In this document: one piece after another, positions 577-42,077 of the stretch
Layout: each line of letters opens with the position of its first letter
Numbering within the stretch: position 1 is the stretch's first letter
Origin: Candidatus Micrarchaeota archaeon
GTDB taxonomy: Archaea > Micrarchaeota > Micrarchaeia > Norongarragalinales > UBA8480
Assembly: GCA_043805855.1 (NCBI GenBank)
Contig: JAZDHP010000008.1
Span: 1-43,784 of the forward strand
Reading direction: 5' to 3'
DNA length: 43,784 bases
Program-made: the position numbers and the translations under genes
The notes under the pieces: generated by a model
Database searches by the model: none
The model's input: the letters and a program-made list of their open reading frames with translations, nothing else
What the model was told of the DNA's origin: nothing

Positions 577-603
577 GCCTTTTCTTTTTCTAAAAGAAAA
601 GGC
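577..603. repeat. Free-standing copy of the A/T-tract palindrome (family 1) found in the tRNA introns
   Basis: gccttttctttttctaaaagaaaaggc versus gcttttcttttctaaagaaaaggc in the Gly and Thr T-loop introns; 4 nt past the PAC2 stop. Confidence 0.75.
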
Positions 604-607
604 ATGG

Positions 608-1330
608 CTAATCGTACATTGGGTTGTCTTGCATTTTTGAATAGTCAGAATGCATTTGTTTCATTTTGTCCATGGCGTCTTTTAACTTTGTCTCAACTTT
701 TTCAGCTTCTACTACGAGTGGCTTTGTGTCAACTTTTATTCCAATTAATGGAGCAACTCGATCGATTAACTTAGCTGCTGCGCGCGGGTCTAACGGAACG
801 CTAGTTTGTGCCATGAAGTTAACTGCTGGCATTTTTGCAGCTGCACATTCTGCAATTAGCACACCGCTTACGCCTTGCGTTGCGCCTTCTTTTACTAGTT
901 CAAATTTTTGCTTTTTCATATCTTCAACTAGTTTTCTCGTGCTGGCGATTGCGTACATTTTTTCATCTGGCGTAGGCGTTGCGATTCCGGCGAATGAGTA
1001 AATTGCACGGGCGTTGTACTTTTCTGCAAATGCAATTATCTGTTCTGAAAGTGGGACAACGAGTTGCGCAGGGATTACCATTTCGGAAAAAATTACAACA
1101 AGATCATGCTCTTCGCTTGCATATATCCGCACAGGAGATACTGGCACGTAGTCGTGAATCGCTGCGATTGGCGGAAATTGCGGGCTAGAAAAGTAGCCAA
1201 TTAATTTCATTTGCAGTTTTTCCGCTAGGAAGGAAGAGGCAATTGTACCGATCATTCCGATGCCGGGAAAGCCTTCAATTATAACTGGATGCTTAAGCTT
1301 GGGTTTTTCAACAATGCGTAATTGTAACAT
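608..1330 (-). CDS. Proteasome assembly chaperone (PAC2) family protein
   Basis: IEGFPGIGMIGTIA, FPP, P.RIY, G.SG.L, DPRAA motifs. Confidence 0.9.
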   Translation of the reverse strand: MLQLRIVEKPKLKHPVIIEGFPGIGMIGTIASSFLAEKLQMKLIGYFSSPQFPPIAAIHDYVPVSPVRIYASEEHDLVVIFSEMVIPAQLVVPLSEQIIAFAEKYNARAIYSFAGIATPTPDEKMYAIASTRKLVEDMKKQKFELVKEGATQGVSGVLIAECAAAKMPAVNFMAQTSVPLDPRAAAKLIDRVAPLIGIKVDTKPLVVEAEKVETKLKDAMDKMKQMHSDYSKMQDNPMYD

Positions 1331-1361
1331 GAAAATTACTACGCTGTCGGGTTTTAAATTT

Positions 1362-2069
1362 CTATTGTAAGAAAAGCAGAGAAAGGTTAAACCCTAAAAG
1401 GGACAATGGCGCGGTTACTGCAAAAAATGGCAGAAAGGGAGTTGCAAATTGCCGTGCGATGAACTTTGCGGATAAAAAGGAAAACACTAACAGATATGAA
1501 TTGATTGCAAAGTTAATTGCAGCTATAGAAACCGCCGGTTGGGAGTTTGGAATTAAAGTAGACGCTTGCATCGACACGCCGGAGATAAGCGCAATTATAA
1601 AAGGCACGAGAAACGCGCTTGCTGCGAGGAGGGAATATTTTTGCATTGACGCGTCTGCCTTAGTTTGCTCGCGGCTGGCGTTTACTTCGCTTAGTTCAAC
1701 TGCGAATTGTTTTACAATTGCCAGCGTCGAGTTACCATTGGAGTAAGTTTTTGCAATTAAATCGCCAGCTTTTCGCACAACAAGCGGATAGCTAGAAAAT
1801 GCCATGCAAAATGCAGTTTCTACGGGTGCGCCACGTTTGATTAACTCGGCAGTTTTGCGAAACGGAATAGCCGCTACAACTTTAGCCCCCGCGGCGGTTT
1901 CGATTATTTTGTCAAACGAAACACTTTGCGGAAGGTTAGATACAACGAGTAAAACATCTGGCATTGTCTTTTCTATATCACGGTTGAGTTTATCACGTCT
2001 AAATTCTTTCAAGGCATTCAGCAACGCGGGGATGGAAATTAAAAAAAGTACGATGAAAATAAAAAACAT
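1362..2069 (-). CDS. Type II secretion system F-domain membrane platform protein (TadC/FlaJ-like)
   Basis: 'IEKTMPDVL' T2SSF-type pattern, cytoplasmic helical domain, C-terminal TM helices. Confidence 0.7.
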   Translation of the reverse strand: MFFIFIVLFLISIPALLNALKEFRRDKLNRDIEKTMPDVLLVVSNLPQSVSFDKIIETAAGAKVVAAIPFRKTAELIKRGAPVETAFCMAFSSYPLVVRKAGDLIAKTYSNGNSTLAIVKQFAVELSEVNASREQTKADASMQKYSLLAASAFLVPFIIALISGVSMQASTLIPNSQPAVSIAAINFAINSYLLVFSFLSAKFIARQFATPFLPFFAVTAPLSLLGFNLSLLFLQ

Positions 2070-2084
2070 TTTTTGGAATTCACC

Positions 2085-2891
2085 TTAAACCGCAGAGTTT
2101 AGTTGCATATAGTAAAGCAATGCTAAGTCGAACAACGGAAAAATAAACACGAAAACAACAATAACTTGGAGAGATGAAAAGGCGAACCCAAGCACGTTTC
2201 CCAAGAGTACAACGGCGGCGAACATCGCAGGCACAACCGCCGAAATAGCAATGAAAAACATTCCGGTTAAGTTTGCCTTTGCAGCTCCGCGTTTTGCACT
2301 GTTGCGCTGTTCTTCAAGTAAATCTACGTGGAACTTTTTCAATTCACTTGCTTTGCCAGTTGCTAGTTTTTGCAAGAATTTTATAAACTCAACGGACGGC
2401 GCAGTAGTGGCAAATGCATTAGGCAATAATTCAAAGGGTATTCCACTGACGAGTAAACGCTGGCAGCGTTGGTAAAATGGTAAAAACAGTGGAAACTCGT
2501 TCATTACCATCAGTGCTTTTTCGCGATTGACGCCTGCTGCGAGTTCAATGTAAACCGCGTGGACAAGCAACGGAAGTTGTGAGTTAATTTGTTTCTTCAA
2601 CAGGTGAATTTGCAATTGTGGGTAAAAATAAAAAAACAAAAAACACCCTGGCGCAAGAAGCGCGACGTAACTGAGGGAAAAAAGCAACGCCGCGAGTAGA
2701 AAGAAAACAAAGGGAAGAAAAATAAAGAGAGAAAAAAGCACGGCGAAGGTAACATATTGGCTTGCGCTGCATTTGTAATTAATTTGCCTCAATTTTCCTT
2801 CTAGAGTTTTGTCACGAATTGGAATAAACGCCGGCGTTGCACTTACAAAACAGTCTAACATCAACCATAAAACTATTTTCTCGTTTAACAA
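2085..2891 (-). CDS. Type II secretion system F-domain membrane platform protein (TadB/TadC-like)
   Basis: 'INSQLPLLVH...ELAAG...KAL' pattern with flanking TM helices; tandem with the previous gene. Confidence 0.7.
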   Translation of the reverse strand: MLNEKIVLWLMLDCFVSATPAFIPIRDKTLEGKLRQINYKCSASQYVTFAVLFSLFIFLPFVFFLLAALLFSLSYVALLAPGCFLFFYFYPQLQIHLLKKQINSQLPLLVHAVYIELAAGVNREKALMVMNEFPLFLPFYQRCQRLLVSGIPFELLPNAFATTAPSVEFIKFLQKLATGKASELKKFHVDLLEEQRNSAKRGAAKANLTGMFFIAISAVVPAMFAAVVLLGNVLGFAFSSLQVIVVFVFIFPLFDLALLYYMQLNSAV

Positions 2892-2934
2892 CTACACGTT
2901 GTAAAAAGTGGATGAAAAGAAAAAAAGAATAAAG

Positions 2935-3192
2935 TGCAACCGCCGGGATCTTCGAGCATTTCGGAAGTTTCTTTTCCCGAAGGCTTTTCTTTTCTAAAGA
3001 AAAGGCTTATCGAACCCGGACCGCAAGCTTTTTTCGGAAAACCGTTTTTTCGTTCAGTTTTCGATCGAGCCTTTTCGCATTTGCTTCTGGGCAAATGACA
3101 TCGCAAATGCGAAGTCAAATGCCGGCCAGGCATTTGCGATTACAAAAAGGCTCGCTTGGAAAGCTCGAATCATACCACTAGACCACGGCTGC
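2935..3192 (-). tRNA. tRNA-Gly(UCC) with two introns: 37/38 (3030-3156, 127 nt) and 59/60 (2949-3008, 60 nt)
   Basis: Acceptor GCAGCCG/CGGTTGC-A; anticodon arm CGAGC TTTCCA|A GCTTG; T arm CCGGG TTCGAT|T CCCGG. BHB helices TTTC/GAAA and TTCG/CGAA. Confidence 0.92.
3076..3141. repeat. Double-hairpin element (family 2), divergent copy nested in the tRNA-Gly anticodon intron
   Basis: gCATTTGC-ttctgg-GCAAATGac ... agtCAAATGCC-ggcca-GGCATTTGcgatt; same frame as copies at 3275, 9623 and 43492. Confidence 0.6.
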
Positions 3193-3244
3193 GCGTCTGT
3201 TAATTTATTTGACAGTATTAAAGATAAAAACTTAAGCTATCACG

Positions 3245-3347
3245 TTTTTCTTTGGGGTTGCAAGACCTTTCTTTGAGCACAAAGCAAAGCTTTGTAACTC
3301 AGACAAAAACTGGCGTTTTTGCTGATTCGTAAAAAGAAAGGGATTAC
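3245..3347. repeat. Free-standing family-1 palindrome carrying a family-2 insert (3275-3327)
   Basis: tttttctttggggttgcaagacctttcttt[insert]...aaaaagaaaggg aligns with the tRNA-Pro intron tttttctttgggactgaaagacttttcttttt...aaaaagaaaagg; insert nearly identical to 9623-9676. Confidence 0.75.
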
Positions 3348-3349
3348 TA

Positions 3350-3524
3350 TGGGGCCACCGAGATTCGAATTCCCTAAAGCGCTTATTCGCCTTTCAATAC
3401 CTAAAGATAAAAATATTTAATTTTTCTTTGGGACTGAAAGACTTTTCTTTTTATAAAAAGAAAAGGCTTTCCTCGGGTCACGGCCACCCCAAGGCCGTAG
3501 GATGCCAGGCTACCCCATGGCCCC
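3350..3524 (-). tRNA. tRNA-Pro(GGG) with 102-nt intron at 53/54 (3370-3471)
   Basis: Acceptor GGGGCCA/TGGCCCC-A; anticodon arm CGGCC TTGGGGT GGCCG; T arm CCGAG|TTCGAAT CTCGG; near-BHB with one mismatch; usual archaeal position downstream of rpoN. Confidence 0.92.
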
Positions 3525-3618
3525 ATTTGCGTATTATTTAAGAGAAAGAGAAGTTTAAAATTCCAAGCGATAGGCTTAAAAAAAAAGCAGGCGTTAGCTT
3601 TGTAAGGTGAACTGTTAA

Positions 3619-3987
3619 ATGGAGAATCTTAGACGAAATTTATCCACAGTAGAAGATGTTAAAAAAGTTGAATTTAGACCTTTACGTTTAGCATTTTCAA
3701 CTACTGGCGAACAGATTAGTCCAGGTTCTAGTGGCGCACAGTTATTATTTGAATTTAAAAGGCTCAGAGAAGCAACTGTAAGAAAAACAGCAGCGAGCCT
3801 TGGACTTAAAACCGAAAGCACTGGCAGACAGGTACTGGTCTTCGATAGGAGACGTATATTCACACTTCAAGTAACTCCCGGATTAGCCAGACCTACAAGA
3901 ATGATAGTCGTTGGGGGAGACAAATACGGAAGACTTCCTGGCGAAGCACAGGAAACTATTCTAAGCTTTTTACGCGGATTCAAATAA
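3619..3987 (+). CDS. Hypothetical protein
   Basis: ATG preceded by GGTGA SD-like motif; fills an intergenic gap; weak resemblance to 14808-15233. Confidence 0.65.
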   Translation: MENLRRNLSTVEDVKKVEFRPLRLAFSTTGEQISPGSSGAQLLFEFKRLREATVRKTAASLGLKTESTGRQVLVFDRRRIFTLQVTPGLARPTRMIVVGGDKYGRLPGEAQETILSFLRGFK

Positions 3988-4011
3988 ACTAAAAACAAAA
4001 AAAATAAGAAA

Positions 4012-4045
4012 TTAGAATCTTTGGAAGTGTTTGATTTCGTCGATT
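4012..4045. repeat. 34-bp direct repeat, copy 1 (duplicate of rpoN 3' end)
   Basis: ttagaatctttggaagtgtttgatttcgtcgatt identical to 5416-5449. Confidence 0.95.
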
Positions 4046-4067
4046 TAGCCCAAAACAGGGTTTTAGT

Positions 4068-4121
4068 TGTGCATAGGGCACTATGCATAAATTTATAAAT
4101 GTGCATAGCGCAATAAGCATA
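4068..4121 (+). promoter_or_regulatory. TATA box flanked by two palindromic operator-like repeats
   Basis: tgtgcatagggcactatgcata (4068-4089), TTTATAAA (4092-4099), tgtgcatagcgcaataagcata (4100-4121). Confidence 0.6.
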
Positions 4122-5419
4122 TGGAAGAACGGCATAGGGCGCTTTTGTTTAGACAGAACCCACAATGGACTGGAGGGAAAATAGATGTGCCGGCGTTCAA
4201 ACGCGATAGCTTCGCTACTCTTAACAAATTCTTAAATTACAAACAAATAATTGCAATTATTGGCCTTCGGCGAGTGGGAAAAACCGTTCTACTTAAGCAA
4301 CTAATGAAGCAACTGAAATTGCCTGAAAACACTTGTTACGTGTCTTTTGACGATAGGGACTTTCAAAAATACGAGACGGCTTGGGAGATAATTAATTACT
4401 TTTTGCAAAAAACAGACGAAACGCAACAGCGGTTTTTGTTTCTTGATGAAATTCAGAAAGTACCTAATTGGCCGGACTTGTTGAAAACAATTTATGACAC
4501 TGAAAAAAACCTTAAAATGTTTGTATCCGGTTCCTCTAGCTTGGAGTTGAAGCAATATAAAGAAACACTTGCTGGAAGAATTCTAACTTTTCACATTCCG
4601 GTTTTTACGTTCAAGGAATTTATAAAATATCACAATTTAGAGTGGAAGATAAAAAAAGAAGATTTGATAAATGAATATGACAAAAAACTAGCGGGTAAAA
4701 AACAAGTTTACCAGGAATTGTTTCAAACCTATTTATTGAAAGGGGCATTTCCTGAGCTATTAGAAATATCTGACGAGGTATTTGTAAAGAAGTATATTTC
4801 GGAGGTTATTGATAAAATAATTGAGGATATTTCTAAGCATATTGAAAACGGCAAACAAGGAGAAATAAGCGATTTAATAGCGCTGTTATGCAAAAGCACC
4901 GGCCGGAATTTTGAACTTAACAACATAGCAGAAGTGCTGAAAATAAACCGCAACACGGCATCTCGCTATGTAAATTTGCTTGAAAAAACTTTTCTTATTA
5001 AAACAAGTTATAACTATACTAAAAGTGTAGCGAAAAAATTCAGAACAAGTAAAAAAAGTTATTCAGCGCATAGTTGCATACCCATTTCAGTATTAAACTA
5101 TCCGTTTAACGCAGTTAGTATTGATGGAAGTGACCTTGGTCATTTGGTTGAAACTGCTATAGCTAGTAATTTAAGTGAATTTTCCTTCTGGAAGCACCAA
5201 AATGATGAAGTGGACTTTGTTATTAACAATTTACCTGTAGAAATAAAGTATCAAACTAACATAAACAAAGGAGACACCGCAGGATTAATAAAATTCACTA
5301 ACAAATTCAAGAAAAAAACTGCATTGCTAGTTACTAAAGATAAAGTTGAAGAACTAAAAATAGGTGAAATAAATATCCTTGCAATTCCAGCGTGGCTTTT
5401 CCTACTTGCCTATACTTAG
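4121..5419 (+). CDS. AAA+ ATPase, AAA_14/DUF4143 family
   Basis: QNP.W N-terminus, Walker A GLRRVGKT, Walker B LFLDEIQ, SGSS, LAGR, G.FP, central HTH-like segment, C-terminal EVDF...PVEIK. Confidence 0.92.
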   Translation: MEERHRALLFRQNPQWTGGKIDVPAFKRDSFATLNKFLNYKQIIAIIGLRRVGKTVLLKQLMKQLKLPENTCYVSFDDRDFQKYETAWEIINYFLQKTDETQQRFLFLDEIQKVPNWPDLLKTIYDTEKNLKMFVSGSSSLELKQYKETLAGRILTFHIPVFTFKEFIKYHNLEWKIKKEDLINEYDKKLAGKKQVYQELFQTYLLKGAFPELLEISDEVFVKKYISEVIDKIIEDISKHIENGKQGEISDLIALLCKSTGRNFELNNIAEVLKINRNTASRYVNLLEKTFLIKTSYNYTKSVAKKFRTSKKSYSAHSCIPISVLNYPFNAVSIDGSDLGHLVETAIASNLSEFSFWKHQNDEVDFVINNLPVEIKYQTNINKGDTAGLIKFTNKFKKKTALLVTKDKVEELKIGEINILAIPAWLFLLAYT

Positions 5420-5449
5420 AATCTTTGGAAGTGTTTGATTTCGTCGATT
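5416..5449. repeat. 34-bp direct repeat, copy 2 (functional rpoN 3' end)
   Basis: Identical to 4012-4045. Confidence 0.95.
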
Positions 5450-5616
5450 AGTGGTACGTAACTTAAAAACATTCTCCTGCAGCAGTACCTCGGGTAGCCG
5501 AGCTCATCGAGTACTTTTGCTGGGTCTTGCTTTTCCATTTGTGTTTTCATGACGAAAGCGTCGATGTCTTCGGCTACTGGTTTTCCGCACGAGAAGCAAC
5601 GAACTGGTATTAACAT
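5416..5616 (-). CDS. rpoN: DNA-directed RNA polymerase subunit N (Rpo10)
   Basis: MLIPVRCFSCGK ... RYCCRRM. Confidence 0.98.
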   Translation of the reverse strand: MLIPVRCFSCGKPVAEDIDAFVMKTQMEKQDPAKVLDELGYPRYCCRRMFLSYVPLIDEIKHFQRF

Positions 5617-5654
5617 TTTTTATTATCCCTCTATTTTCGACATTTTTCAATATC

Positions 5655-6056
5655 CTATCTGTATGATTTTGTGAAACGTGCTCTTGCTTTTGGCCCCTTG
5701 AATTTCTTGGGTTCGACTCTCCTTGGGTCTTCTACGAGGAGTGAGCGGTCAAATGCTAGCATTTGCTGCTTTACAGCGTCAGGCGAACCGTGGATTTGTA
5801 ATAGCCCTTTTGCTACTGCGATGCGGCTTGCTTGTGCTTGTCCGCTGGCTCCGCCGCCGTTTACATTAACATAGATGTCGTAGGCTTCAGGGTCGTCAAA
5901 GAAACGCAGTGGCTCTTGGTAGACATCGCGTAGGAATCTAGAAGTCATTGAACTTACAGCTGTGCCGTTTACAGTGTAAGTGCCTTTGCCTGGGTTGATG
6001 GTAGCGCGTGCAATTGCTTCTTTGCGTTTTCCACGAGTTACGATTGTTTTGTTCAT
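5655..6056 (-). CDS. rps9: 30S ribosomal protein S9 (uS9)
   Basis: GKRKEAIARA, GGG..GQA.A, EPKK..GP.ARA...KSYR; ATG overlaps the L13 stop. Confidence 0.97.
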   Translation of the reverse strand: MNKTIVTRGKRKEAIARATINPGKGTYTVNGTAVSSMTSRFLRDVYQEPLRFFDDPEAYDIYVNVNGGGASGQAQASRIAVAKGLLQIHGSPDAVKQQMLAFDRSLLVEDPRRVEPKKFKGPKARARFTKSYR

Positions 6057-6469
6057 TGTGCTGACCACCCTAATGATTGCGATAATTGCCCGAGGGTAAT
6101 AAAACTTCCCTGTAGAGCTTTTGAATCTTTAACTGGCCTTGTGCCTTTCTTTGGCCCTTCGCCAATGTAAGATTTTATATTACGAAGCGCTTGTTTTCCG
6201 CGTTTTCCAGCTGGGAGCATACCCGAAATAACTTTTCTAAACAAGTAGTCTGGGCGTCGTGGCCATTTCATTGCTTTTTCTGGATTCGCGTGGTTTGTCA
6301 TTTCACGGCGTTTAGTATAAACTCTTACTATTTGCAACGCGTTGCCTGAAATCACAGCTTTTTCAATGTTGTAAATGTTTATCGTGTAACCTCGTAGTGC
6401 GTTTTTGGCACAGTAAGCCGCTAGTCTACCTGAAACGAGGCCGCTTGCATCAATTGTAATTTCTTTCAT
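6053..6469 (-). CDS. rpl13: 50S ribosomal protein L13 (uL13)
   Basis: IDA...GRLA, EKAVISG, PRRPD....ISGMLP. Confidence 0.96.
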   Translation of the reverse strand: MKEITIDASGLVSGRLAAYCAKNALRGYTINIYNIEKAVISGNALQIVRVYTKRREMTNHANPEKAMKWPRRPDYLFRKVISGMLPAGKRGKQALRNIKSYIGEGPKKGTRPVKDSKALQGSFITLGQLSQSLGWSAQ

Positions 6470-6482
6470 TCTTTTGTTCACT

Positions 6483-6833
6483 TTATGTAATTATTAAAAC
6501 GTTTTTGCCGCTTGGGTTAATTTCAACAAGTTGGTTTATTGAAATTACTTTTCCGCCAGCTTGTGTTATTTTTTCGCGCGCTTTTCCAGAAATGGAAAAA
6601 GCAGCGACTGTTGCTTTTGTTCCAGCGCCGTTTGAGAGAACTTTGCCCGGAACTAACAACGTGCCAGTTAGTTTTGTCATTTTTGAAACGTTTACCTCTA
6701 CGCGTTTTCTTGTTGGCCTCAAGAGTAACTCTGCTGCGCGTTTCCATATTGGCGCTTTGTTTTTCTTGCTACTTATTTCAAGAAACGCTATTAATTCAAG
6801 CGTTTTTCTGTTTGTCGGTCCACGTATAACCAT
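6483..6833 (-). CDS. rpl18e: 50S ribosomal protein L18e (eL18)
   Basis: APIWK, VNVSK, VPGKVL, AREKI..AGG. Confidence 0.96.
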   Translation of the reverse strand: MVIRGPTNRKTLELIAFLEISSKKNKAPIWKRAAELLLRPTRKRVEVNVSKMTKLTGTLLVPGKVLSNGAGTKATVAAFSISGKAREKITQAGGKVISINQLVEINPSGKNVLIIT

Positions 6834-6914
6834 TTTTTTCAACTCTAAATTTTATTTTAATTTTCTATTTTTTATTTATTCTTTATTTATTTTTCAACTT
6901 GTTTGAATCTTTAA

Positions 6915-7137
6915 TGCAGAGGGAGAGATTATCATGCTTTTTTTCTTTTTCCAAGGTTTTTCTTTTTTCAAAAAAGAAAAAGCTTTTGAACTCTCGAACT
7001 CCTAAGAGACAGGAACCTCAATCCTGCGCATTTAGTCATAAATACAAATTACAGTTGTTCTGTTATTGGTTTATCGCCAACTTGAGGACAACTTGTTCAT
7101 CTTTGTTTTTCTATTGACCTGGCTTTGCTACCTCTGC
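6915..7137 (-). tRNA. tRNA-Leu(GAG) with introns at 21/22 (7032-7113, 82 nt) and 59/60 (6929-6984, 56 nt)
   Basis: Acceptor GCAGAGG/CCTCTGC-A; anticodon arm CAGGA TTGAGGT TCCTG; BHB GGTC/GACT at the D-loop, relaxed motif at the T-loop; usual position between rpoD and L18e. Confidence 0.92.
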
Positions 7138-7165
7138 ATTTCACAGCGGTTAAAAGAATGCTATC

Positions 7166-7220
7166 TTTCAGTAACTTTTCTTTTGGCGACTGAAAGCACC
7201 TTTTCGCAAAAGGGGCTTTC
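7166..7220. repeat. Free-standing family-1 palindrome directly after the rpoD stop
   Basis: ctttcagt...ttttcttttggcgactgaaagcaccttttcgcaaaaggggctttc matches the architecture of the Pro, Ser and Leu(CAG) introns. Confidence 0.7.
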
Positions 7221-7222
7221 TT

Positions 7223-7924
7223 TTATAACTCTTTTTTCAACTCGTCGGCTTTTTCCCGTAGAATTGAAACTGCTTTTTGTAATATTACGGCTGGCTCTTC
7301 GCCGTTGTAACTTTCAACGTAAAAAATGTACTCTCCTTCTTTTGGAAGCACGTTAACGTTTTCTGAAATTTGGCCAATGTCAAGTTTTTCCGGGTTAGTT
7401 ACTTTGCCGTTTTCGTCAACTGCACCTGTTGGAATTGTTTTCAACGCTTCTACCTTTGAACCTTTTATCTTTAAGTCAGGGTAGTGCGCATAGCTTGCAA
7501 AGCTGTTTTGAAACTTCGCGTGTTGCTTTGCAGTGCCAATTACCGCAGTTGCTTCGAAGCGTAAGTTTTGGTTTTCTGAAAGTGCAATTATTGGAATGTG
7601 AAGCAAAGCGGGTTTTATTTTGTCGTCTGTTGATTTTAAGTCTTTCGAATAAACTATCGTCGGTCCAGTTGCCTGTAGGCTAAAAGTTACCTTCACGTCG
7701 GGAGATGCTTTGTCATCGTTTGTTAATGGTATTAACGCAAGGCGAAGTGCAAGGTATTCGTTGAACATTGCTGAGTTGTTTTCAAAAAAGGTAACTTCGT
7801 CAATTGCAAAGTTTGGAATTGAACTGTTTATTATTCTTCGAAGTGCGTTGAGCATAGGGACAGAACAGTCCTTAACGTGGTAGTAAACGCCGCTTTTGGT
7901 TTTTCTAATTTGTTCGAACTTCAT
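7223..7924 (-). CDS. rpoD: DNA-directed RNA polymerase subunit D (Rpo3)
   Basis: NALRR, AIDEV.F.EN.S, RLALIPL, G..K.HAKFQ, FYVES. Confidence 0.96.
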   Translation of the reverse strand: MKFEQIRKTKSGVYYHVKDCSVPMLNALRRIINSSIPNFAIDEVTFFENNSAMFNEYLALRLALIPLTNDDKASPDVKVTFSLQATGPTIVYSKDLKSTDDKIKPALLHIPIIALSENQNLRFEATAVIGTAKQHAKFQNSFASYAHYPDLKIKGSKVEALKTIPTGAVDENGKVTNPEKLDIGQISENVNVLPKEGEYIFYVESYNGEEPAVILQKAVSILREKADELKKEL

Positions 7925-7930
7925 GGTTGT

Positions 7931-8359
7931 CTACACCCTACGGCCTCTTTTTCCGCCTGGCCTCTTTGTAGTGTCAGTTGGAATTGGAGTAACATCTTCA
8001 ATTTTACCAATGCGTAAACCTGAACGCGCTAATGCTCTTATAGCTGCTTGTGCGCCTACACCTGGAGTTTTAGAACCGTGGCCGCCCGGTGCGCGTACAC
8101 GTACGATTACACCCACTACGCCTCTTTCTTTTGCTTTTTCGCTTGCTTTGAAAGCAGCTTGCATTGCCGCGTATGGCCCGCCTTCTTCCCGGTCGTTTTT
8201 AACAATCATTCCACCGCTTGCGGTTGTGATTGTTTCAGCTCCGCTGATGTCCGTAATTGTAATTATAGTGTTGTTTTTCGAAGAGTAAACGTGCGCAATG
8301 CCCCATTTACCTTCTTTTGGTGCAACTACATTTCTTGGTGTAAATCTACTTTCAGCCAA
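7931..8359 (-). CDS. rps11: 30S ribosomal protein S11 (uS11)
   Basis: [34 protein letters not shown]. Confidence 0.98.
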
Positions 8360-8858
8360 CGGTGTTCACCTGTTGATTTTTCAATTCAATAACATGATTA
8401 TACCAGTTAATTTCATTTTCTTCACGGAATTTAACTAGATAAGACGGCGCAGTTACCCTCACTCCATTTATTGCAATGTGACCATGGGTAACAAATTGCC
8501 TGCTTTGTAAAATTGTACTTGCCATTCTCTTGCGCGTAACTATAGTTTGTAACCTTCTCTCAAGAATACTGCGAGTGTCAAGTGCAAGAACATCATCAAG
8601 AGTTGCATTAGCAACTAAGAATGACTTAATGCGGTTTAGTAAAAGTTCAGTGCGTTGCTCGATGTTTTTTCCTTTTCCAGATTGTAAACGGCGAGCTTCA
8701 CGGCGGATTTTACGTAGAATTGTTTTCATTCTCCATAACTCGCGCATGTTTTTCAAGCCGTATTCGTCGACTAGCTTACGTTCTTCTTTAATGCGGCTAG
8801 CGTCCCATTGTCTTTTAGGCGCTTCGAATTGCTTCCTAAGTTTCACTGGACTTCCCAT
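8352..8858 (-). CDS. rps4: 30S ribosomal protein S4 (uS4)
   Basis: MGSP start, [25 protein letters not shown]. Confidence 0.97.
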
Positions 8859-8859
8859 A

Positions 8860-9501
8860 TTACTTCTTTGCCTCGTCCTTTGTTCCAGCAGATGCCGGTG
8901 CAATTGATTTGCGTACGACTCCAACAGTTAAACCGCTTCTTCCAGTTGTACGGTTGTGTTGACCGCGTACTTTTTGTCCAATTGAATGTCTCCAGCCAAT
9001 CCACGAGCGAGTGTCTTTCTCGCGTTGGATATCTTGCTTTGTTTGGAAAATTAAATCAGTACCAAGTAAATGTTTGTCTTCGCCAGTGTCAATATCTTTT
9101 CTCCGGTTAAGCATGAAAGCAGGAATTCCAGCGGTTTTTGGATTCTTTATAATGTCTTCAATGCTGTTCAACTGTTCTTCAGTTAAATCTCCCACAAGTG
9201 CTTTTGGGGATATTGAAAGTTTAAGTAGAATTGCGTTTGAAAGAGCGTTGCCAAGCGTGTGGCCAATTCCCTTTACTCTGCGTAGAGCTTCTGATAAATA
9301 GTAGTGGCCGTCCATGTCTTTTCCAACTAGACGAATTACTCCGCGGAAGTCTCCCGAAGCAGATGGCCTTTTCTTTAAAACAGATTGATTTTGTGAAGGC
9401 GCAGCTAAGACTTTTTTCTTGTCCTTATTGTGATCCTTTGAAGGTTTAACGTCTTTGCCGTCTTTTGCTTTGTCGTTCTTTTCCAAAACTTTTTTCACCA
9501 A
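8860..9501 (-). CDS. rps13: 30S ribosomal protein S13 (uS13) with Lys-rich N-terminal extension
   Basis: LNRRKD..TG...HL, G.RH..G.KVRGQ..RTTGR. Confidence 0.96.
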   Translation of the reverse strand: MVKKVLEKNDKAKDGKDVKPSKDHNKDKKKVLAAPSQNQSVLKKRPSASGDFRGVIRLVGKDMDGHYYLSEALRRVKGIGHTLGNALSNAILLKLSISPKALVGDLTEEQLNSIEDIIKNPKTAGIPAFMLNRRKDIDTGEDKHLLGTDLIFQTKQDIQREKDTRSWIGWRHSIGQKVRGQHNRTTGRSGLTVGVVRKSIAPASAGTKDEAKK

Positions 9502-9547
9502 CGTGCGGACCGCGAACTAAAAGTTCGCAACCTCGCTTAATTACGAG

Positions 9548-9848
9548 CGCCGGGACTGAGAAATTCGGAAAACCCTTCAGTTCCTATGCGCTATAAAATA
9601 ACAATTTAACCCTTTTCTTTTTGAGCACAAACCACTGGTTTGTGACTCAGACAAAAACCTTTGGTTTTTGCTGATTGGGTTGAAAGACTTTTTTCTTTTC
9701 GCAAAAGAAAAAAGGGTTTCGTTCGAACTCAGGAGCCCTTACGGGCACAAGCTTTCTGCGAGCGTGAGGTCTACAGTTTTACTGTCACCATAACAAGCAC
9801 TCGTCTGGATAATTCCAGGCCTGCGCATTACCACTCTGCCATCCCGGC
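9548..9848 (-). tRNA. tRNA-Ser(GGA) with introns at 37/38 (9754-9812, 59 nt) and 59/60 (9562-9721, 160 nt)
   Basis: Acceptor GCCGGGA/TCCCGGC-G; anticodon arm CAGGC CTGGAA|A GCTTG; long variable arm; T arm CTGAG TTCGAA|T CTCAG with BHB helix TTCG/CGAA; usual position upstream of S13. Confidence 0.92.
9623..9676. repeat. Double-hairpin element (family 2) inside the tRNA-Ser T-loop intron
   Basis: gagcacaaaccactggtttgtgactcagacaaaaacctttggtttttgctgatt; differs from 3275-3327 almost only at the hairpin apices. Confidence 0.85.
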
Positions 9849-9944
9849 ATGAGAGCGAAAGAAACACAATGTATTTCCAACTTCGCCAATCTTTGCTTCC
9901 TAGAGCGTATTTAATAGTAAGAAACTGGTTTAAAAAGGCTACTA

Positions 9945-10859
9945 CTAGAACCCTTGAATTACTCTCTCAATGTCAAACGCGTACCCTTTTTCAGAGAAGC
10001 GAATTTCTTTAGTGGGCATCAACGCAGTTGCAATTGCGACGAGTTCCCCCTTGCCAGTAAATATCCCAACGGGATCGCCTTTTTCGATTTTCTCGTCGAG
10101 AGCAACGATGCCGGGAATGGCTAGGTCAGCGCCAGTTGAAATCGCGTGGAGGCAATCGTCACTCGCTATTACGTGTTTTAGCCCGACGAATTCTTCAATT
10201 GGAGTGATAAATTTTTTAATGTCGTCACGCTCTTTTTCCTTCCATAGCCAGTAATAATCAGATAATTCTTGCAAGGTTATTGCCTGTTGTTCGACAAACG
10301 CGCTTGCTTTTGTTCTACGTAGTTCAGCCATTTCGCTTTTTACCCCGAGAATTTCGCCGATGTCAAAAACTAAATTGCGAACGTAAAACCCAGCTTCGCT
10401 TGTTACGGTAAAAAGCACGTCGCTATCTTTTACCTCGAGAATTTTTAAGCCGTAAACTTCGCGTACGCGTAGCTTTTTCGCAACTGCACTCAATAACGGG
10501 GGAGTTTGGTAAATTTTACCACGGAAGCGCGAGAAGGCTTTTTCTAAATCTTTCAACGCGATTGGTTTTTCCAAGTGCATGACGCAAACGTAGGTTTTGT
10601 TCGTATCTCCCAAGAAGTGAGCGGCTTTGCAGCTCTGGTTTAGCATTACTGGCAAAACGCCTGAAACTTCCGGGTCAAGTGTTCCAGTGTGGCCAGTTTT
10701 GTTAACGTTGAGAATCTTTTTTACAAACGCACTTACTTCGTGGCTTGAGGGCCCGCATGGTTTGTCAATACAAATTACGCCGTGCTCGAGTGCCTGTTCA
10801 ACACTACGCTCAGCTGGAGCAATGCCTTTGTTAGCAATTTCACTATAGCGAGTAAACAT
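9945..10859 (-). CDS. cbf5: H/ACA RNA-guided pseudouridine synthase Cbf5 (TruB family)
   Basis: DKP.GPSSHEV, GHTGTLDP, Q.PP..SAV, ELRRT, C-terminal PUA domain. Confidence 0.96.
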   Translation of the reverse strand: MFTRYSEIANKGIAPAERSVEQALEHGVICIDKPCGPSSHEVSAFVKKILNVNKTGHTGTLDPEVSGVLPVMLNQSCKAAHFLGDTNKTYVCVMHLEKPIALKDLEKAFSRFRGKIYQTPPLLSAVAKKLRVREVYGLKILEVKDSDVLFTVTSEAGFYVRNLVFDIGEILGVKSEMAELRRTKASAFVEQQAITLQELSDYYWLWKEKERDDIKKFITPIEEFVGLKHVIASDDCLHAISTGADLAIPGIVALDEKIEKGDPVGIFTGKGELVAIATALMPTKEIRFSEKGYAFDIERVIQGF

Positions 10860-28008: not shown

Positions 28009-28056
28009 AAAATAAAATCACGTTTCAAAATATTAAAAATAATTTAAGCTAATTCT

Positions 28057-28209: not shown

Positions 28210-28223
28210 AATATATAGATCCC

Positions 28224-28541: not shown

Positions 28542-28625
28542 TAAGTTAAAAACCGTACAAACACACCCATTCCAAGTTACTACTCATAAGTTAAACAATA
28601 GGAAATAGAGTGGTTAAAAAGGTTG

Positions 28626-28937: not shown

Positions 28938-29157
28938 TTTCCCACACCTCGTCCGCAGGATTATCCCAAAGTTCTTTCATTTTCTCTTGTTGTATTTTGT
29001 GCAAGAAATCATCGTATTGATTGCGTTCTTTTGCGCGTTTAAACAACGTAATCATTTTCAACAAAAGCGAATTATACGTTTGCTCAGGATACTCTCTAAG
29101 TTGTTTCAACTCATCCAAAACATCTTTATTTATTTGAATCGTAGTAATGTTCACCAT
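28930..29157 (-). CDS. Putative antitoxin (ribbon-helix-helix-like)
   Basis: TTIQI...V.D.LK......TY..LL, acidic C-terminus ELWDNPADEVWE; overlaps the toxin start. Confidence 0.75.
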   Translation of the reverse strand: MVNITTIQINKDVLDELKQLREYPEQTYNSLLLKMITLFKRAKERNQYDDFLHKIQQEKMKELWDNPADEVWENV

Positions 29158-30472: not shown

Positions 30473-30611
30473 AGCCCCCGACGAGAATAGTTCAAACTTT
30501 TTCTTTTTCCAAGGTTTCTTTTCCCAAGGCTTTTCTTTTCTAAAGAAAAGGCTTTTGAACTCGCGACCTTTTGCTTACCATGCAAACGCTCTACCACTGA
30601 GCTACAGAGGC
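30473..30611 (-). tRNA. tRNA-Thr(GGU) with about 67-nt intron at 59/60 (30487-30553)
   Basis: Acceptor GCCTCTG/CGGGGGC; D arm GCTC/GAGC; anticodon arm TTTGC ATGGTAA GCAAA; T arm GCGAG TTCAAA|T CTCGT; helix TTCA/TGAA with enlarged 3' bulge. Confidence 0.9.
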
Positions 30612-32782: not shown

Positions 32783-32810
32783 AAAATTAAAATAAGTAAA
32801 AAATAGTTTT

Positions 32811-37978: not shown

Positions 37979-37997
37979 AACAAACAAAGGTATTTCA

Positions 37998-39584: not shown

Positions 39585-39649
39585 TAACCAAACGGCAGGC
39601 GTTACGCTTTAATAGTTTGTTGTCAATAAAAAACAACAGGTGCATTTAA

Positions 39650-40369: not shown

Positions 40370-40384
40370 CAAACACACAATTAA

Positions 40385-41218
40385 CTATGCTAACAAATTC
40401 TGTGGCTTCCCATTTCTCCACTTTACTAGATTTTGTACAAACATTTTGTCGCCGATTAGAAAAGATTCTGGATTCTTCCAAGCCATGTGCGGCGTCGTTA
40501 AAGTGTTTTTCAAAATTGTTTTAGAACCTGGGTCAAGATCAATAGCTGCTCCTGCCAGCTTGCCGCTTTCAAGAGCATTTTTCAGCGCCTCGCCGTTAAC
40601 TAGCCCTTCGCGGCTCGGATTTATCAAAAAGGCACCTTGTTTTATCATTTCAAATTCTTTCTTTCCAATGAAACCCCGCGTGCCATCATTTAATTCTAAG
40701 TGAAGCGAAACAACATCACTTTCTTTCAACAATTTTACCAGTGGCACTTGTACCCTTGATTTCTGTTGTCGATCCCAGGCAATTACTTTCATCCCAAGTT
40801 TGTTCGCCTTTTCAGCAACCGCTTGGCCAATTCTCCCCAGCCCAATAACGCCAAGAGTTTTGCCTTTTGGCTGGCAGAGTTTTTGCAACATTGTAATCGT
40901 CCACTCGGCAACCGCAGAAGTACAATAGCCCGGGCAATAACTTATCTCAACGCCGTGCACCTTAGCCGCACTGACGTCAACCCAATCGCAACCAGTTGCA
41001 TAAACTGAAACGAATTTTAGTTTAGGAAGTGAATTGAAAAAATTAGCAGTTAATTGAATGACTCTTTTTGGAGTTGCAAGCACAGCTTCGGCGTCGCGGC
41101 ACTTTTCAATTAAATCCGCTTCACTTTTAACAACCTCATTGTAAAACGTAGCTGGGCCAATTAGTTTCAATTGCCGCTCAGTAAAATCTTCCTTTGCAAG
41201 GAAAACAACTACTTTCAT
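40385..41218 (-). CDS. D-isomer-specific 2-hydroxyacid dehydrogenase
   Basis: AVAE, GKTLGVIGLGRIG, SD.VSLH, LIN.SR, GAA.D, TPH.AW. Confidence 0.92.
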   Translation of the reverse strand: MKVVVFLAKEDFTERQLKLIGPATFYNEVVKSEADLIEKCRDAEAVLATPKRVIQLTANFFNSLPKLKFVSVYATGCDWVDVSAAKVHGVEISYCPGYCTSAVAEWTITMLQKLCQPKGKTLGVIGLGRIGQAVAEKANKLGMKVIAWDRQQKSRVQVPLVKLLKESDVVSLHLELNDGTRGFIGKKEFEMIKQGAFLINPSREGLVNGEALKNALESGKLAGAAIDLDPGSKTILKNTLTTPHMAWKNPESFLIGDKMFVQNLVKWRNGKPQNLLA

Positions 41219-41230
41219 ATTGCAAATTGC

Positions 41231-41677
41231 CTATTTTTTCTTCTTTTTGGAGTTAGCACTTTTGTTTAGAAATGAAGGCAGTACAAAACTAGCTATGCCT
41301 AGTACAAAAATCACCGGCGTAATGAAAATATTATTATCGCCAGTTAACAAATATAAATTTGATACACTTATTTCCTGGAACCACGCAATTGCCAATGGAA
41401 AGAAAGCATACAGCAAACCTGCAAGCACTAAACCGGTACGATTTACACCTGCAACAACGGCCTTCTTGCCAAAAATATAACCGACAACTACAAAAATTGG
41501 AACAAAGGGAACTATCAATACCGACAGCATTATCCCTAGTTTTTCAAAGAAGGGCAACAAATTATACGGATCCGTCATATCAGTTCCACGCGGAATCAAA
41601 AGCATCAGAAGAACGTACAACGCCATCAAAAGTGTAGGAACGCAAGCGTAATGAAACCAAGAATTTTTATCACACAT
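41231..41677 (-). CDS. Hypothetical four-TM membrane protein
   Basis: Hydrophobic segments and basic C-terminus. Confidence 0.65.
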   Translation of the reverse strand: MCDKNSWFHYACVPTLLMALYVLLMLLIPRGTDMTDPYNLLPFFEKLGIMLSVLIVPFVPIFVVVGYIFGKKAVVAGVNRTGLVLAGLLYAFFPLAIAWFQEISVSNLYLLTGDNNIFITPVIFVLGIASFVLPSFLNKSANSKKKKK

Positions 41678-41755
41678 AGATAAAGAAACAGCTAAAGAGT
41701 ATAAAAAGTATTAGGTGTGGCCAAAGAAAACTTAAACTAATATAAAAAAGAAAAA

Positions 41756-42077
41756 TGCAGGAGGAGAGATTTTCACTTAGAGGGAAATTTCTTTTTTCCC
41801 AAGGCTTTTTTCTTTCTAAAAGAAAAAAGGCTTTTGAACTCGAGAAACCAATTTCTTTTCTTCCACTCAAAGGCTTCTTTTCTTTCGCAAAGAAAAGAAG
41901 GGTTTGCTCTCGAACCCCTAAGGGACCAGACCCTGAATCTGGCGCATTTAATCGAAAGCCCTTTTTCTGTAGAAAAATGGCTTTCAGCCCGAAAAAGACA
42001 CTTACGTTCTTTTGGGATTGAAAGACCTTTTCTTTCCAAGAAAAGGGCTTTCCTTGACCAGGCTTTGCTACCCCTGC
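41756..42077 (-). tRNA. tRNA-Leu(CAG) with three introns: 21/22 (41948-42053, 106 nt), 53/54 (41839-41906, 68 nt), 59/60 (41770-41832, 63 nt)
   Basis: Acceptor GCAGGGG/CTCCTGC-A; anticodon arm CCAGA TTCAGGG TCTGG; BHB helices GGTC/GATT, CGAG/CTCG and TTCA/TGAA. Confidence 0.92.

Follow-up and report, generated by a model that had tools for sequence, protein, structure and literature searches.

A hairpin-plus-tail repeat within tRNA introns and behind gene ends of a Micrarchaeota genome, a candidate source of new archaeal introns

Where do new introns in archaeal tRNA genes come from? The question is raised by a contig of a DPANN archaeon, Candidatus Micrarchaeota (the window, meaning the whole stretch of DNA analysed, is 43,784 nucleotides long), in which similar short palindromes begin tRNA introns and also stand free behind genes. 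All modules cited in the initial annotation were found at the places claimed, on the minus (-) strand. The 1.03-Mb genome as a whole carries about 70 copies of one non-coding module of ~50 nt, built in order from a pyrimidine arm, a 3-4-nt loop, a purine arm, a 4-16-nt linker and a purine tail.

One module family in tRNA genes, 23S rRNA and behind genes

A profile derived from seven window copies gave 29, 50 and 67 non-overlapping matches in the genome at E<=1e-4, 1e-2 and 5e-2, respectively, compared with 0, 0 and 0-2 in six shuffled genomes (three whole-contig and three 60-nt-block dinucleotide shuffles). Among 72 oriented hairpin-plus-tail copies there are ~12 subfamilies, defined by the linker. 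Non-repetitive linkers such as GGCCAGGCGTGGCC and CCGTTTACGGTTC are found again at unrelated loci, and a 20-mer spanning such a linker occurs at 10 loci in a species-representative genome collection, all of them in Micrarchaeota assemblies. Since subfamily-specific linkers are common to free and intronic copies, with up to 96% identity, a single repeat family is supported. The initial annotation had allowed for similarity no better than that of shuffled A/T-tract hairpins, that is, for low-complexity T-tract/A-tract hairpins that arose by repeated convergence and without common ancestry. The arms are indeed of low complexity, and at 70% identity shuffled introns often pair too (32-36 of 68). 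Convergence is nevertheless extremely improbable and already contradicted by the present evidence, namely the 50 matches against none in the shuffles at E<=0.01, the recurring linkers and the 20-mer confined to Micrarchaeota within that collection.

In a table read by eye, 71 copies are distributed over tRNA genes (54, of which 49 in sense), 23S rRNA (3) and free sites (14), the last directly behind tRNA, sRNA-like (C/D-sRNA-like) or protein genes. Copies in rRNA, which had been named as worth looking for, form one insertion of three copies, including a copy pair, that is absent in five relatives. With intron boundaries outside the window drawn approximately, by spliced alignment against another genus, 38 of 68 tRNA introns contain the module in sense, in 36 of them no more than 8 nt from the intron 5' end; for T-loop introns a sense module near that end was found in 18 of 22. 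The earlier statement that the family forms most tRNA introns and also sits free after gene ends is thus borne out genome-wide, with these 38 introns and 14 free copies. A partner in another tRNA type at least 80% identical exists for 37 of the 68 introns (54%; 0-2 in shuffles), and one at least 90% identical for 11 (0 in shuffles). Free and intronic copies reach 96% identity, with at least 88% in six of the 14 free copies; judged by their common subfamilies, they are the same thing. Nearly all tRNA genes are interrupted, and Rfam detects only 6 of about 40. ARAGORN found no tRNA in the unspliced window and accepts the spliced Pro(GGG), Leu(CAG), Leu(GAG), Thr(GGT) and Gly(TCC); spliced Ser shows an odd anticodon loop in this test, its drawn boundaries being probably about 1 nt off.

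All window copies described here lie on the minus strand. A free copy of subfamily A (CCATGCC, hairpin, GGCCAGGCGTGGCC, A-rich tail) at 553..607 adjoins the TAG stop of the PAC2 gene (608-1330) and is matched by both profile and covariance model (CM). Another, at 3240..3350, starts 7 nt after the 3' end of tRNA-Pro and carries a nested double hairpin of 52 nt (3274-3325) within its hairpin loop. The subfamily B copy at 7170..7222 lies 2-3 nt after the TAA of Rpo3/RpoD, a gene identified, like PAC2, by Pfam, and ~35 nt upstream of tRNA-Leu(GAG). A leader homologous to this region stands upstream of another tRNA-Leu (C45), and because the leader is common to two tRNA-Leu genes, the rpoD-side copy may reflect gene-plus-flank duplication instead of insertion.

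Within tRNA genes of the window, the module was counted by eye in 9 of 12 introns of seven genes. The GAAAGCC type starts the 53/54 intron of tRNA-Pro(GGG) (3370..3471, B-type module 3419-3471 at the 5' end), the T-loop intron of tRNA-Ser(GGA) (9562..9720, B-type module at the 5' end, its tail split by a nested double hairpin at 9622-9674) and the D-loop intron of tRNA-Leu(CAG) (41950..42055, 106 nt, two B-type modules in inverted orientation to each other). Four T-loop introns begin with the AAGCC...GCCTTGGGAAAAGAAA type, those of tRNA-Gly(TCC) (2949..3008, C-type module 2966-3008 at the 5' end and a 3' segment complementary to the T-loop), tRNA-Thr(GGT) (30488..30554, C-type module at the 5' end and an 8-bp T-loop complement at the 3' end), tRNA-Leu(GAG) (6929..6984, C-type module plus about 10 nt) and tRNA-Leu(CAG) (41770..41832, C-type module sharing 96% identity with the free copy that follows a tRNA at C53:5825). 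The module in the 53/54 intron of tRNA-Leu(CAG) (41839..41906) likewise has 96% identity to a free copy, the one following a tRNA at C19:14350, and the D-loop intron of tRNA-Leu(TAG) (51..86), a gene that runs off the contig end, has the hairpin alone.

Mirror tail, splice-site helix and turnover

The tail mirrors the purine arm and co-varies with it. In 70 copies, the mirror match of the tail was better than the direct match in 49, equal in 17 and worse in 4, and a copy's own tail matches at 0.913 compared with 0.841 +/- 0.007 for swapped tails; 20 copies from eight other genomes gave 14, 6 and 0. This architecture is conserved across families of the phylum. Such mirror covariation, the sole basis for inferring triplex formation, suggests that the tail is the signature of an A/T-rich Y-R-R intrastrand triplex motif, new here.

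The ends of the module had been thought to complete a bulge-helix-bulge (BHB), which does not hold in most introns. At T-loop introns the helix comes from a short locus-specific 3' segment and not from the module: a helix of at least 4 bp between this segment and the exon end is present in 14 of 20, compared with 13% of control windows. One 412-aa frame has two tRNA_int_endo matches, and the splicing endonuclease is accordingly predicted to be multi-unit and epsilon2-like.

Copies have been gained and lost at orthologous sites across three sister species (G001, G002 and G003), so that presence is not fixed everywhere; fixed presence at all orthologous loci, with no further copies, is what the initial annotation had named as speaking against its idea. 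The free copy beside PAC2 is absent at the orthologous site in all three and is 95% identical (59/62 positions) to a tRNA-Ser T-loop intron of G003. No module follows tRNA-Pro in G002 or G003, and the rpoD site holds another subfamily in G001 and none in G002 or G003. G002 wholly lacks the D-loop intron of tRNA-Leu(CAG), has an intron at 53/54 of this gene, and at its T-loop has an intron of 35 nt without the hairpin; the D-loop intron of tRNA-Leu(TAG) is absent in G002 and G003, which have a module intron at 53/54 in its place. An intron that already existed has taken up a module in G001, precisely at the 5' splice junction. Inverted module pairs make up what are probably the two clearest young gains, and their ends could pair with each other. 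Across species, non-orthologous module copies are 86-95% identical, compared with 66-81% for flanking coding DNA. The 53/54 module intron of tRNA-Pro(GGG) and the T-loop intron of tRNA-Gly(TCC) are also found in G002 and G003, as is the tRNA-Ser(GGA) module, whose nested double hairpin occurs in the present genome only; the T-loop intron of tRNA-Leu(GAG) is common to this genome, G002 and G003 and absent in G001. Because five of the seven compared module introns are common to G002, much of the pattern is inherited and not recent.

Origin and spread of the module

Copies persist in two settings only, directly behind the 3' end of a functional RNA or ORF and as the 5' bulk of a tRNA or rRNA insertion. 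With a probability of roughly 0.6, we read the module as a lineage-wide copy-and-paste repeat of triplex type that seeds tRNA introns and is spread by host recombination or repair without a dedicated transposase. A copy landing in a tRNA gene would survive if a short 3' segment could base-pair with the end of the exon, as YGAA(A) would with UUCR at T-loop sites; the relaxed BHB formed in this way could be excised by the multi-unit epsilon2-like endonuclease, and the module would thereby seed a new intron. Spread would take place at the DNA level, through recombination or repair possibly set off by the triplex or hairpin structure, and also through gene conversion between conserved T-arm flanks of different tRNAs; the direction from free copy to intron is suggested. 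Behind genes the module may also act as a 3'-end or terminator-like element. The T5-T6 runs of its pyrimidine arm resemble this genome's own tRNA terminators, and the model presupposes read-through of T-runs inside introns. The remark that no mobilising enzyme was visible extends beyond the window, since a Y1/HUH transposase (Y1_Tnp) was found in 0 of the 4 genomes of the genus and a reverse transcriptase (RVT_1) in 0 of 21 genomes. Of the proposed REP/MITE-like character, a single repeat family with turnover stands, whereas a cognate transposase and clear target-site duplications were not found; apart from the hairpin, solo copies lack terminal inverted repeats.

Scans of this genome and its relatives with profile and CM gave further copies genome-wide and phylum-wide. 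The module is patchy across Micrarchaeota and tracks tRNA disruption, its count correlating with Rfam-detectable tRNAs at rho -0.76 (n=21) and -0.39 (n=150), values that are overstated as related genomes are not independent. Modules occur in 19 of 23 genomes with 15 or fewer detectable tRNAs, and only 4 of 105 module-less genomes have that few. Some genomes have badly disrupted tRNAs and no modules (G158, G138, G084 and G133), so intron proliferation does not depend on the module. Intact tRNAs are also found in some module-rich genomes, and most sampled copies there lie behind tRNA ends and stop codons.

It is unlikely, although several observations fit, that selection maintains the module as a functional 3'-end element (a terminator, insulator or RNA processing or stability signal) that spread passively with duplicated or recombined tRNA flanks and left intronic copies as trapped trailers. 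Every free copy stands behind the end of a gene (tRNA, C/D-sRNA-like gene or ORF), the pyrimidine arm is terminator-like, the conservation of architecture and mirror tail across families suggests selection on structure, and the module-rich genomes with intact tRNAs would also be accommodated. Furthermore, tRNA-Ile and tRNA-Pro(TGG) are followed by antisense copies around which tRNA 3' ends and flanks have been duplicated, and two tRNA-Leu genes have the module-containing leader in common. However, the same subfamily occurs at D-loop, anticodon-loop, 53/54 and T-loop positions and in 23S rRNA, a distribution that flank duplication cannot produce; 38 introns opening with a terminator would cut the tRNAs short, a free copy follows only about 14-18 genes and is therefore not the general terminator, and the G001 module entered an existing intron.

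That same G001 copy, placed at the 5' splice junction, would suit a family that began as tRNA introns, with intron DNA, or intron RNA that was probably circular after excision, re-inserted elsewhere and free copies as escaped introns. Intronic copies make up three quarters of the family, the endonuclease of archaea releases introns that are then ligated, and circular RNAs in archaea have reportedly been the subject of a published study (PMC3326292). This history is quite improbable given the missing reverse transcriptase in 21 genomes, the abundance of the module, mostly behind genes, in genomes with 28-31 detectable tRNAs, and free copies without the 3' guide segments found in introns. Very improbable indeed is a reading of the long B-type insertions (Pro, Ser) as terminator-plus-promoter cassettes, whose two tandem transcripts would be joined in trans like split tRNAs. 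TATA-like A/T boxes do lie 30-40 nt before the downstream exon in both insertions, the Pro box has a 12-mer in common with the region upstream of tRNA-Gly, and the module begins with a T-run like those of tRNA terminators; but most module introns, at 55-68 nt, leave no room for a promoter, their downstream exons measure 6-20 nt, and G002 and G003 have other 3' parts in their Pro intron, without the box. As a repeat that would seed introns, the module offers a concrete candidate source of new archaeal tRNA introns.

Comparison with known systems

The module resembles REP/BIME and IS200/IS605-derived elements (mobilised by RAYT or TnpA) in being a short palindromic hairpin in many orientation-biased copies, and a position mostly just behind genes is counted as a further likeness. 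Unlike these, it lacks the defining Y1/HUH enzyme in the genus's four genomes; those genomes that do have Y1_Tnp genes (G005, G014 and G019) gave no module matches, and the mirror tail and presence in introns are not REP features. Introners are transposon-derived spliceosomal introns of eukaryotes. There too, a short non-coding repeat multiplies, is tolerated in genes since host splicing removes it, and leaves many similar introns. Introners depend on the spliceosome and sit in mRNAs, whereas the module would rely on a protein endonuclease and BHB in RNA genes, does not bring both splice signals, and has no transposase link or target duplication seen here.

The initial annotation knew of no named element like this, which needs qualifying: the layout matches bacterial intrastrand triplex motifs, and intron families common to several tRNAs are known from Thermoproteales. 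In the available passages of Holder et al. 2015 (PMC4666352), TM_ECO / BoxC motifs likewise have three blocks in a row (pyrimidine stem, loop, purine stem, short loop, second purine stem) and many copies per genome, patchy among close relatives, and a link to genome rearrangement is listed as a further likeness. They are G/C-rich and bacterial, whereas the module is A/T-rich and archaeal, with a longer, variable second loop (4-16 nt) and a tie to gene 3' ends and introns; the bacterial motif was tested by CD and NMR, the archaeal one is proposed from mirror covariation.

ARMAN-2 (Micrarchaeum) belongs to the same phylum and, according to passages of Fujishima et al. 2011 (PMC3239211), has introns at 53/54 and 59/60, relaxed BHBs and an epsilon2 enzyme that cuts them, long and multi-unit like the 412-aa frame here. 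These passages contain no repeated module, and the introns given there as examples measure only 13 and 25 nt; in the present genome nearly all tRNA genes are interrupted, as the Rfam count reflects.

Another close precedent is that of Thermoproteales, where intron families spread among tRNA genes in 'large-scale tRNA intron transposition' (Fujishima et al. 2010, as related in parts of PMC4090602 and PMC3239211). Both systems have near-identical BHB-type introns in different tRNA types and positions, recent on the scale of close relatives, in a host with a broad-specificity endonuclease. A partner in another tRNA type at 80% identity or more is found for 54% of introns here, compared with 28.3% in an excerpt on Thermoproteales (bioRxiv 10.64898/2026.10.13.758758), the two measures being similar and not identical. 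In contrast to Thermoproteales as these sources describe them, the repeated unit here is only the 5' part of the intron, copies also lie outside introns, behind genes and in 23S rRNA, and a defined hairpin-plus-mirror-tail in a DPANN host belongs to a phylum-wide family.

Introns that fragment the tRNA genes

The genome under study (1.03 Mb in 67 contigs, 41% G+C; the window is its contig C8) yields six Rfam tRNA matches at E ≤ 0.001, of which five exceed the Rfam gathering score, and in the unspliced window ARAGORN finds no tRNA and Rfam finds one. When the intergenic stretches of the window are read by eye, seven tRNA genes with 12 insertions can be recognised on the - strand, namely tRNA-Leu(TAG) (110 to the contig end), tRNA-Gly(TCC) (3192-2935), tRNA-Pro(GGG) (3524-3350), tRNA-Leu(GAG) (7137-6915), tRNA-Ser(GGA) (about 9848-9548), tRNA-Thr(GGT) (30611-30473) and tRNA-Leu(CAG) (42077-41756). 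Removal of the insertions restores the cloverleaf, as ARAGORN accepts the spliced exons as Pro(GGG), Leu(CAG), Leu(GAG), Thr(GGT) and Gly(TCC); spliced Ser was accepted only after a boundary shift, its drawn boundaries being about 1 nt off. Since ARAGORN tolerates small errors, intron boundaries in the window are good to about 1-2 nt. Among sequencing runs matched to window positions 1-10000 there was no RNA run, and three runs of groundwater DNA contained a small share of this stretch or none. Nine of the 12 insertions begin with a module of about 50 nt (pyrimidine arm, 3-4-nt loop, purine arm, 4-16-nt linker and purine tail), in agreement with the initial annotation, which had placed a palindromic element at intron starts.

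To map tRNA genes independently of splice motifs, 36 compact tRNAs of a relative in another genus (G007) served as queries in a spliced dynamic-programming alignment against the entire genome; away from the window its boundaries are approximate, and exons of very small size may escape it. About 40 tRNA loci were found in this way, and 35 of them contain insertions, 68 in all (median 60 nt). The module also accounts for the fact that only six of about 40 genes are seen by standard tRNA finders. The module lies in sense orientation in 38 of the 68 introns, starting within 8 nt of the intron 5' end in 36 of these, and its share varies by region: 18/22 introns in the T-loop, 5/6 in the T-stem or variable region, 7/13 in the D-arm and 8/27 in the anticodon arm.

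The same annotation had suggested that the ends of the module complete the bulge-helix-bulge (BHB) splice site, but at T-loop introns this helix appears to come from the 3' segment of the intron instead. A perfect helix of at least 4 bp between the last dozen intron bases and the upstream exon end is present in 14 of 20 T-loop introns, compared with 13% of control windows taken inside the same introns, and one of at least 5 bp in 7 of 20 compared with 1%; the count covers the helix at T-loop introns. Typically, YGAA of the intron 3' end stands opposite TTCR of the T-loop, and the minimum free energy fold of Gly intron 2 contains the T-stem and the adjoining helix. The module is the 5' bulk of the intron, and the splice-site helix appears to form from the last dozen bases of the intron. 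Duplication of a TTCGAA palindrome as a target site was also considered as the source of this helix and was ruled out, because tRNA-Thr and others carry the true complement of a non-palindromic T-loop and no direct repeat.

A putative splicing endonuclease is encoded at C10:~27700-28950 (contig:position) as a single 412-aa frame with two matches to the catalytic domain PF01974. In length and multi-unit layout it is similar to the ARMAN-2 epsilon2 enzyme, which has 387 aa and three units and cuts relaxed motifs at 59/60 (PMC3239211). By this resemblance the enzyme could be able to cut non-canonical positions. A module copy is situated at about the 3' end of this frame (C10:28970-29021).

A repeat family with a mirror-image tail

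A profile of seven window copies gave 29, 50 and 67 non-overlapping matches in the genome at E ≤ 1e-4, 1e-2 and 5e-2, respectively, while three whole-contig and three 60-nt-block dinucleotide shuffles gave 0, 0 and 0-2; the matches thus exceed chance, and a similarity no better than that of shuffled A/T-tract hairpins, which the initial annotation had named as refuting its proposal, is not what is seen. A hairpin finder detected 72 oriented copies, the requirements being a T-rich arm with its A-rich complement and, within 34 nt, a tail resembling AAAGAAA. These fall into about a dozen subfamilies set by non-repetitive linkers, for example GGCCAGGCGTGGCC, GGTCTTTCAnnCCC, CCGTTTACGGTTC and GCCTTGGG, and linkers held in common in this way mean that the copies are not convergent A/T hairpins. 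Placed by eye, the CCGTTTACGGTTC subfamily occurs in six tRNAs, its sites being the D-loop, the position behind the D-arm, the anticodon loop and 53/54, and subfamily A occurs in both the T-loop and the anticodon loop. Furthermore, at ≥80% identity 37 of the 68 introns match an intron of a different tRNA type, and at ≥90% identity 11 do so, compared with 0-2 and 0 in shuffles. A 20-mer spanning the subfamily A linker occurs at 10 loci, all within four Micrarchaeota assemblies, some in introns of the T-loop or the anticodon loop and others behind stop codons. It had no match in viral contigs, although one exact pattern is a weak test of a viral or plasmid source.

Labelled by eye, 71 distinct copies comprise 54 in tRNA genes (49 sense, 5 antisense), three in 23S rRNA and 14 free copies, that is, copies behind genes and outside tRNA and rRNA genes. 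The three free copies previously reported in the window are all present, abutting the stop of the PAC2 gene (553-607), after the Rpo3/RpoD gene (7170-7222), both genes being assigned by Pfam, and after tRNA-Pro (3240-3350). Across the genome, six free copies lie no more than a few bases from a stop codon, four are just after tRNA 3' ends, three are antisense beside tRNA ends, and a further one directly follows a C/D-box-sRNA-like match. This match (SNORD31 model, 33.6 bits, threshold 40) ends where the free module starts (C63:10309-10370).

Free and intronic copies of the genome are up to 96% identical, as exemplified by the copies behind tRNAs at C53:5825 and C19:14350, which match Leu(CAG) introns 3 and 2, respectively, and for 6 of the 14 free copies an intronic copy matches at ≥88% identity. 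Coding DNA is 66-81% identical between this genome and its three congeners (G001, G002 and G003), while module copies at non-orthologous places are 86-95% identical. For instance, the PAC2-side free copy matches the T-loop intron of tRNA-Ser(GCT) in G003 at 59 of 62 positions, and the genome's own tRNA-Ser(GCT) carries a different subfamily at that T-loop position. Judged by sequence, free and intronic copies are the same repeat family. In addition, a homologous upstream leader of about 95 nt with a B-type module belongs to two tRNA-Leu genes (C45:25515-25580 and window 7140-7222), the C45 leader being preceded by a truncated copy of the tRNA-Leu 5' end.

The free copies have T-runs of T4-T6 behind genes, compatible with oligo-T terminators, and T5-T7 runs of the form TTTTTCTTTTT follow most tRNA genes in the 3' flanks of about 25 genes genome-wide. 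As TTTTTCTTTTT is also the word of the pyrimidine arm, there is a hint that the module grew from a local terminator. An arm that appears terminator-like fits a 3'-end role of the free copies and raises the question of read-through inside introns; compared by eye, T-run length does not clearly differ between intronic and free copies. The idea that the A-rich tail is part of the BRE/TATA of the next gene was also considered, and spacing to downstream starts, inconsistent by eye, speaks against it.

The purine tail does not repeat the purine arm but reads as its mirror image. Of 70 copies, 49 have a tail that matches the arm better in mirror than directly, 17 a tail that matches equally well both ways and 4 one that matches better directly, and in 20 copies from eight other genomes the mirror was better in 14, equal in 6 and the direct match better in none. 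This holds for at least seven distinct arm patterns, each with a tail that mirrors it, and arm and tail covary, with a mirror match of 0.913 for own tails compared with 0.841 ± 0.007 (maximum 0.864) for tails swapped in 300 permutations. An alternative Watson-Crick hairpin between tail and pyrimidine arm is disfavoured, because the tail would then have to repeat the purine arm directly and the mirror match is the better one by 49 copies to 4. A mirror purine repeat beside a complementary pyrimidine arm has the layout of an intrastrand purine-motif triplex (Y-R-R). Secondary-structure folding returns the hairpin only, with a single-stranded tail, and so triplex formation is suggested by the covariation. 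On the opposite strand the layout would be U-U-A, which is the topology of known RNA triple helices. This apparent triplex-type architecture, which had escaped the initial annotation, is a new lead.

Distribution, gain and loss

A covariance model built from 48 copies, a search that had been recommended at the outset, revealed further copies both in the genome and in its relatives: 102 matches in the genome, between 35 and 61 in the three congeners, 0-16 in other members of the family and, in three other families of the order, 50 (G013), 33 (G016) and 19 (G018). Module count correlates negatively with the number of Rfam-detectable tRNAs, with rho -0.76 in 21 genomes that are related and not independent, and rho -0.39, among the matches listed, in an even phylum sample of 150 genomes (one left out), also related. 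Modules are present in 19 of 23 genomes with 15 or fewer detectable tRNAs, and only 4 of 105 module-less genomes have so few. Exceptions run both ways: four genomes combine 13-25 modules with 28-31 detectable tRNAs, most of their sampled copies being directly behind tRNA ends or stop codons and 2 of 14 in anticodon-loop introns, and four others have few detectable tRNAs and no modules. Therefore, the module exists without intron proliferation, and proliferation is possible without the module. The phylum-wide link of the module to tRNA fragmentation is a new lead.

Comparison of orthologous sites with the congeners and of rRNA genes, both proposed in the initial annotation, uncovered gains and losses as well as copies in 23S rRNA. 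The PAC2-side free copy is absent from G001-G003, that behind tRNA-Pro is missing in G002 and G003, and the site after rpoD holds a subfamily B copy in the genome under study, an A-like copy in G001 and none in G002 or G003. The D-loop intron of Leu(GAG) occurs in all four genomes, with a module only in G001 and exactly at the intron 5' end, and the T-loop intron of the same tRNA is missing from G001. Similarly, G002 lacks Leu(CAG) intron 1, which consists of two inverted modules over 106 nt and is counted as specific to the genome under study; Leu(CAG) intron 3 lacks the hairpin in G002; and in Leu(TAG) the D-loop intron occurs only in the genome under study, while a 53/54 intron occurs only in G002 and G003. 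Modules shared with G002 are those of Pro, Gly, Ser, Leu(CAG) intron 2 and the Leu(GAG) T-loop.

In the 23S rRNA gene (locus L119), an insertion of about 100 nt (C5:60363-60461, L119 positions 1864-1962) consists of two inverted modules and is absent from the 23S genes of G002, G004, G007, G012 and G020. The same gene contains a below-threshold group I intron match at L119 599-778 (35.5 bits, threshold 50, E 2.8e-6) that overlaps a 186-aa ORF. Between the PAC2-side module and tRNA-Leu(TAG) there is also a 130-aa ORF (window 155-545, - strand) with a lipoprotein-like N-terminus and no Pfam match; as the tRNA follows PAC2 after about 110 nt in G002 and G003, this ORF is a species-specific insertion.

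Other small elements occur as well, some of them nested. A double hairpin about 52 nt long, TCAGC-hairpin-TCTGAGT-hairpin-GCTCA, keeps its linkers constant, and changes in its stems compensate each other. Ten copies of this double hairpin fit a strict pattern, at 3274-3325 and 9622-9674 on the - strand of the window and at C9:21703, C10:4434, C12:7605, C29:47583, C45:6751, C45:23377, C56:2276 and C67:21682; four are in or next to triplex-type modules, and the copy in the Ser intron is absent from G002 and G003. Intron 1 of tRNA-Gly has a palindromic stretch of about 65 nt (window 3075-3140, - strand) with arms TCGCAAATGC and GCATTTGCGA; it is not found in the same intron of G002 or G003 and is a third kind of nested insertion.

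Mode of spread and comparison with known systems

One repeat family common to introns and gene flanks, gained and lost between sister species, is supported by these observations, and to this extent the core of the original proposal has been borne out, its mobile-element mechanism being hypothetical. The cognate Y1/HUH transposase expected of a REP/MITE-like element is not seen, with no PF01797 match in G000 (the genome under study) or G001-G003; in other genomes Y1 genes are present without relation to module counts, and no reverse transcriptase was found in 21 genomes. Solo copies have no terminal repeats, and filled and empty sites show no clear target duplication, although divergence blurs the junctions. 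Both clear young gains specific to this genome (Leu(CAG) intron 1 and the 23S insertion) consist of two modules in inverted orientation whose ends can pair, so the pair may be the arriving unit. Where whole T-loop introns are nearly identical in different tRNAs, gene conversion across the conserved flanks of the T-arm could have moved them. Transfer to an unlike position or into rRNA would require something else, perhaps structure-provoked repair.

On a bolder, tentative reading, to which we give a probability of roughly 0.3, the module could play in archaea the part that introners play in eukaryotes, with no need of a transposase, as a self-structured triplex DNA that drives its own copying into gene ends and tRNA and rRNA genes, where it becomes BHB introns. 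The hairpin and mirror tail would form an intrastrand triplex, a structure that would lead to breaks, stalling or a switch of template where RNA genes are strongly transcribed, and these events would copy the module to gene ends and into tRNA or rRNA genes. A few complementary bases on its 3' side might then suffice for a new bulge-helix-bulge intron. Behind tRNA-Ile and tRNA-Pro(TGG) (C9:30776-30890 and C32:6117-6230), an antisense subfamily A module stands between two copies of a stretch made of the last 14-15 nt of the tRNA and 20-26 nt of its 3' flank; such duplications may be an arrival footprint or an alternative last exon.

If this transposase-free introner reading is true, it would identify both the physical material of new archaeal tRNA introns and the path by which they are gained. 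The module bears on how archaeal tRNA genes gain introns, and with both free and intronic states visible, young gains in tRNA and 23S genes and empty sites in sister species, this question becomes testable. Pairs of filled and empty sites, a defined 50-nt sequence and the triplex as a structural prediction could all be useful handles. Moreover, the module could mark hidden tRNA genes in DPANN assemblies. In the full text covered, which lies largely outside subscription journals, no description of such a module was found.

In Thermoproteales, 'transposition' of tRNA introns has reportedly been inferred without a vehicle. Shared intron families, the hallmark of that group, are also met here, across different tRNA types and positions and with turnover between close relatives. 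The layout of the module is that of the intrastrand triplex class described in bacteria by Holder et al., whose G/C-rich example TM_ECO forms a triplex in vitro (PMC4666352); for the archaeal module, triplex formation is suggested by covariation. For Asgard archaea, a 2026 census reports tests of copying, mobile elements and reverse transcription and leaves the arrival route open (bioRxiv 10.64898/2026.10.13.758758). For shared introns the same source gives 28.3% in Thermoproteales and 1.5% in Asgard archaea, and by a similar, not identical, measure (a partner at ≥80% identity in a different tRNA type) the share in the present genome is 37 of 68.
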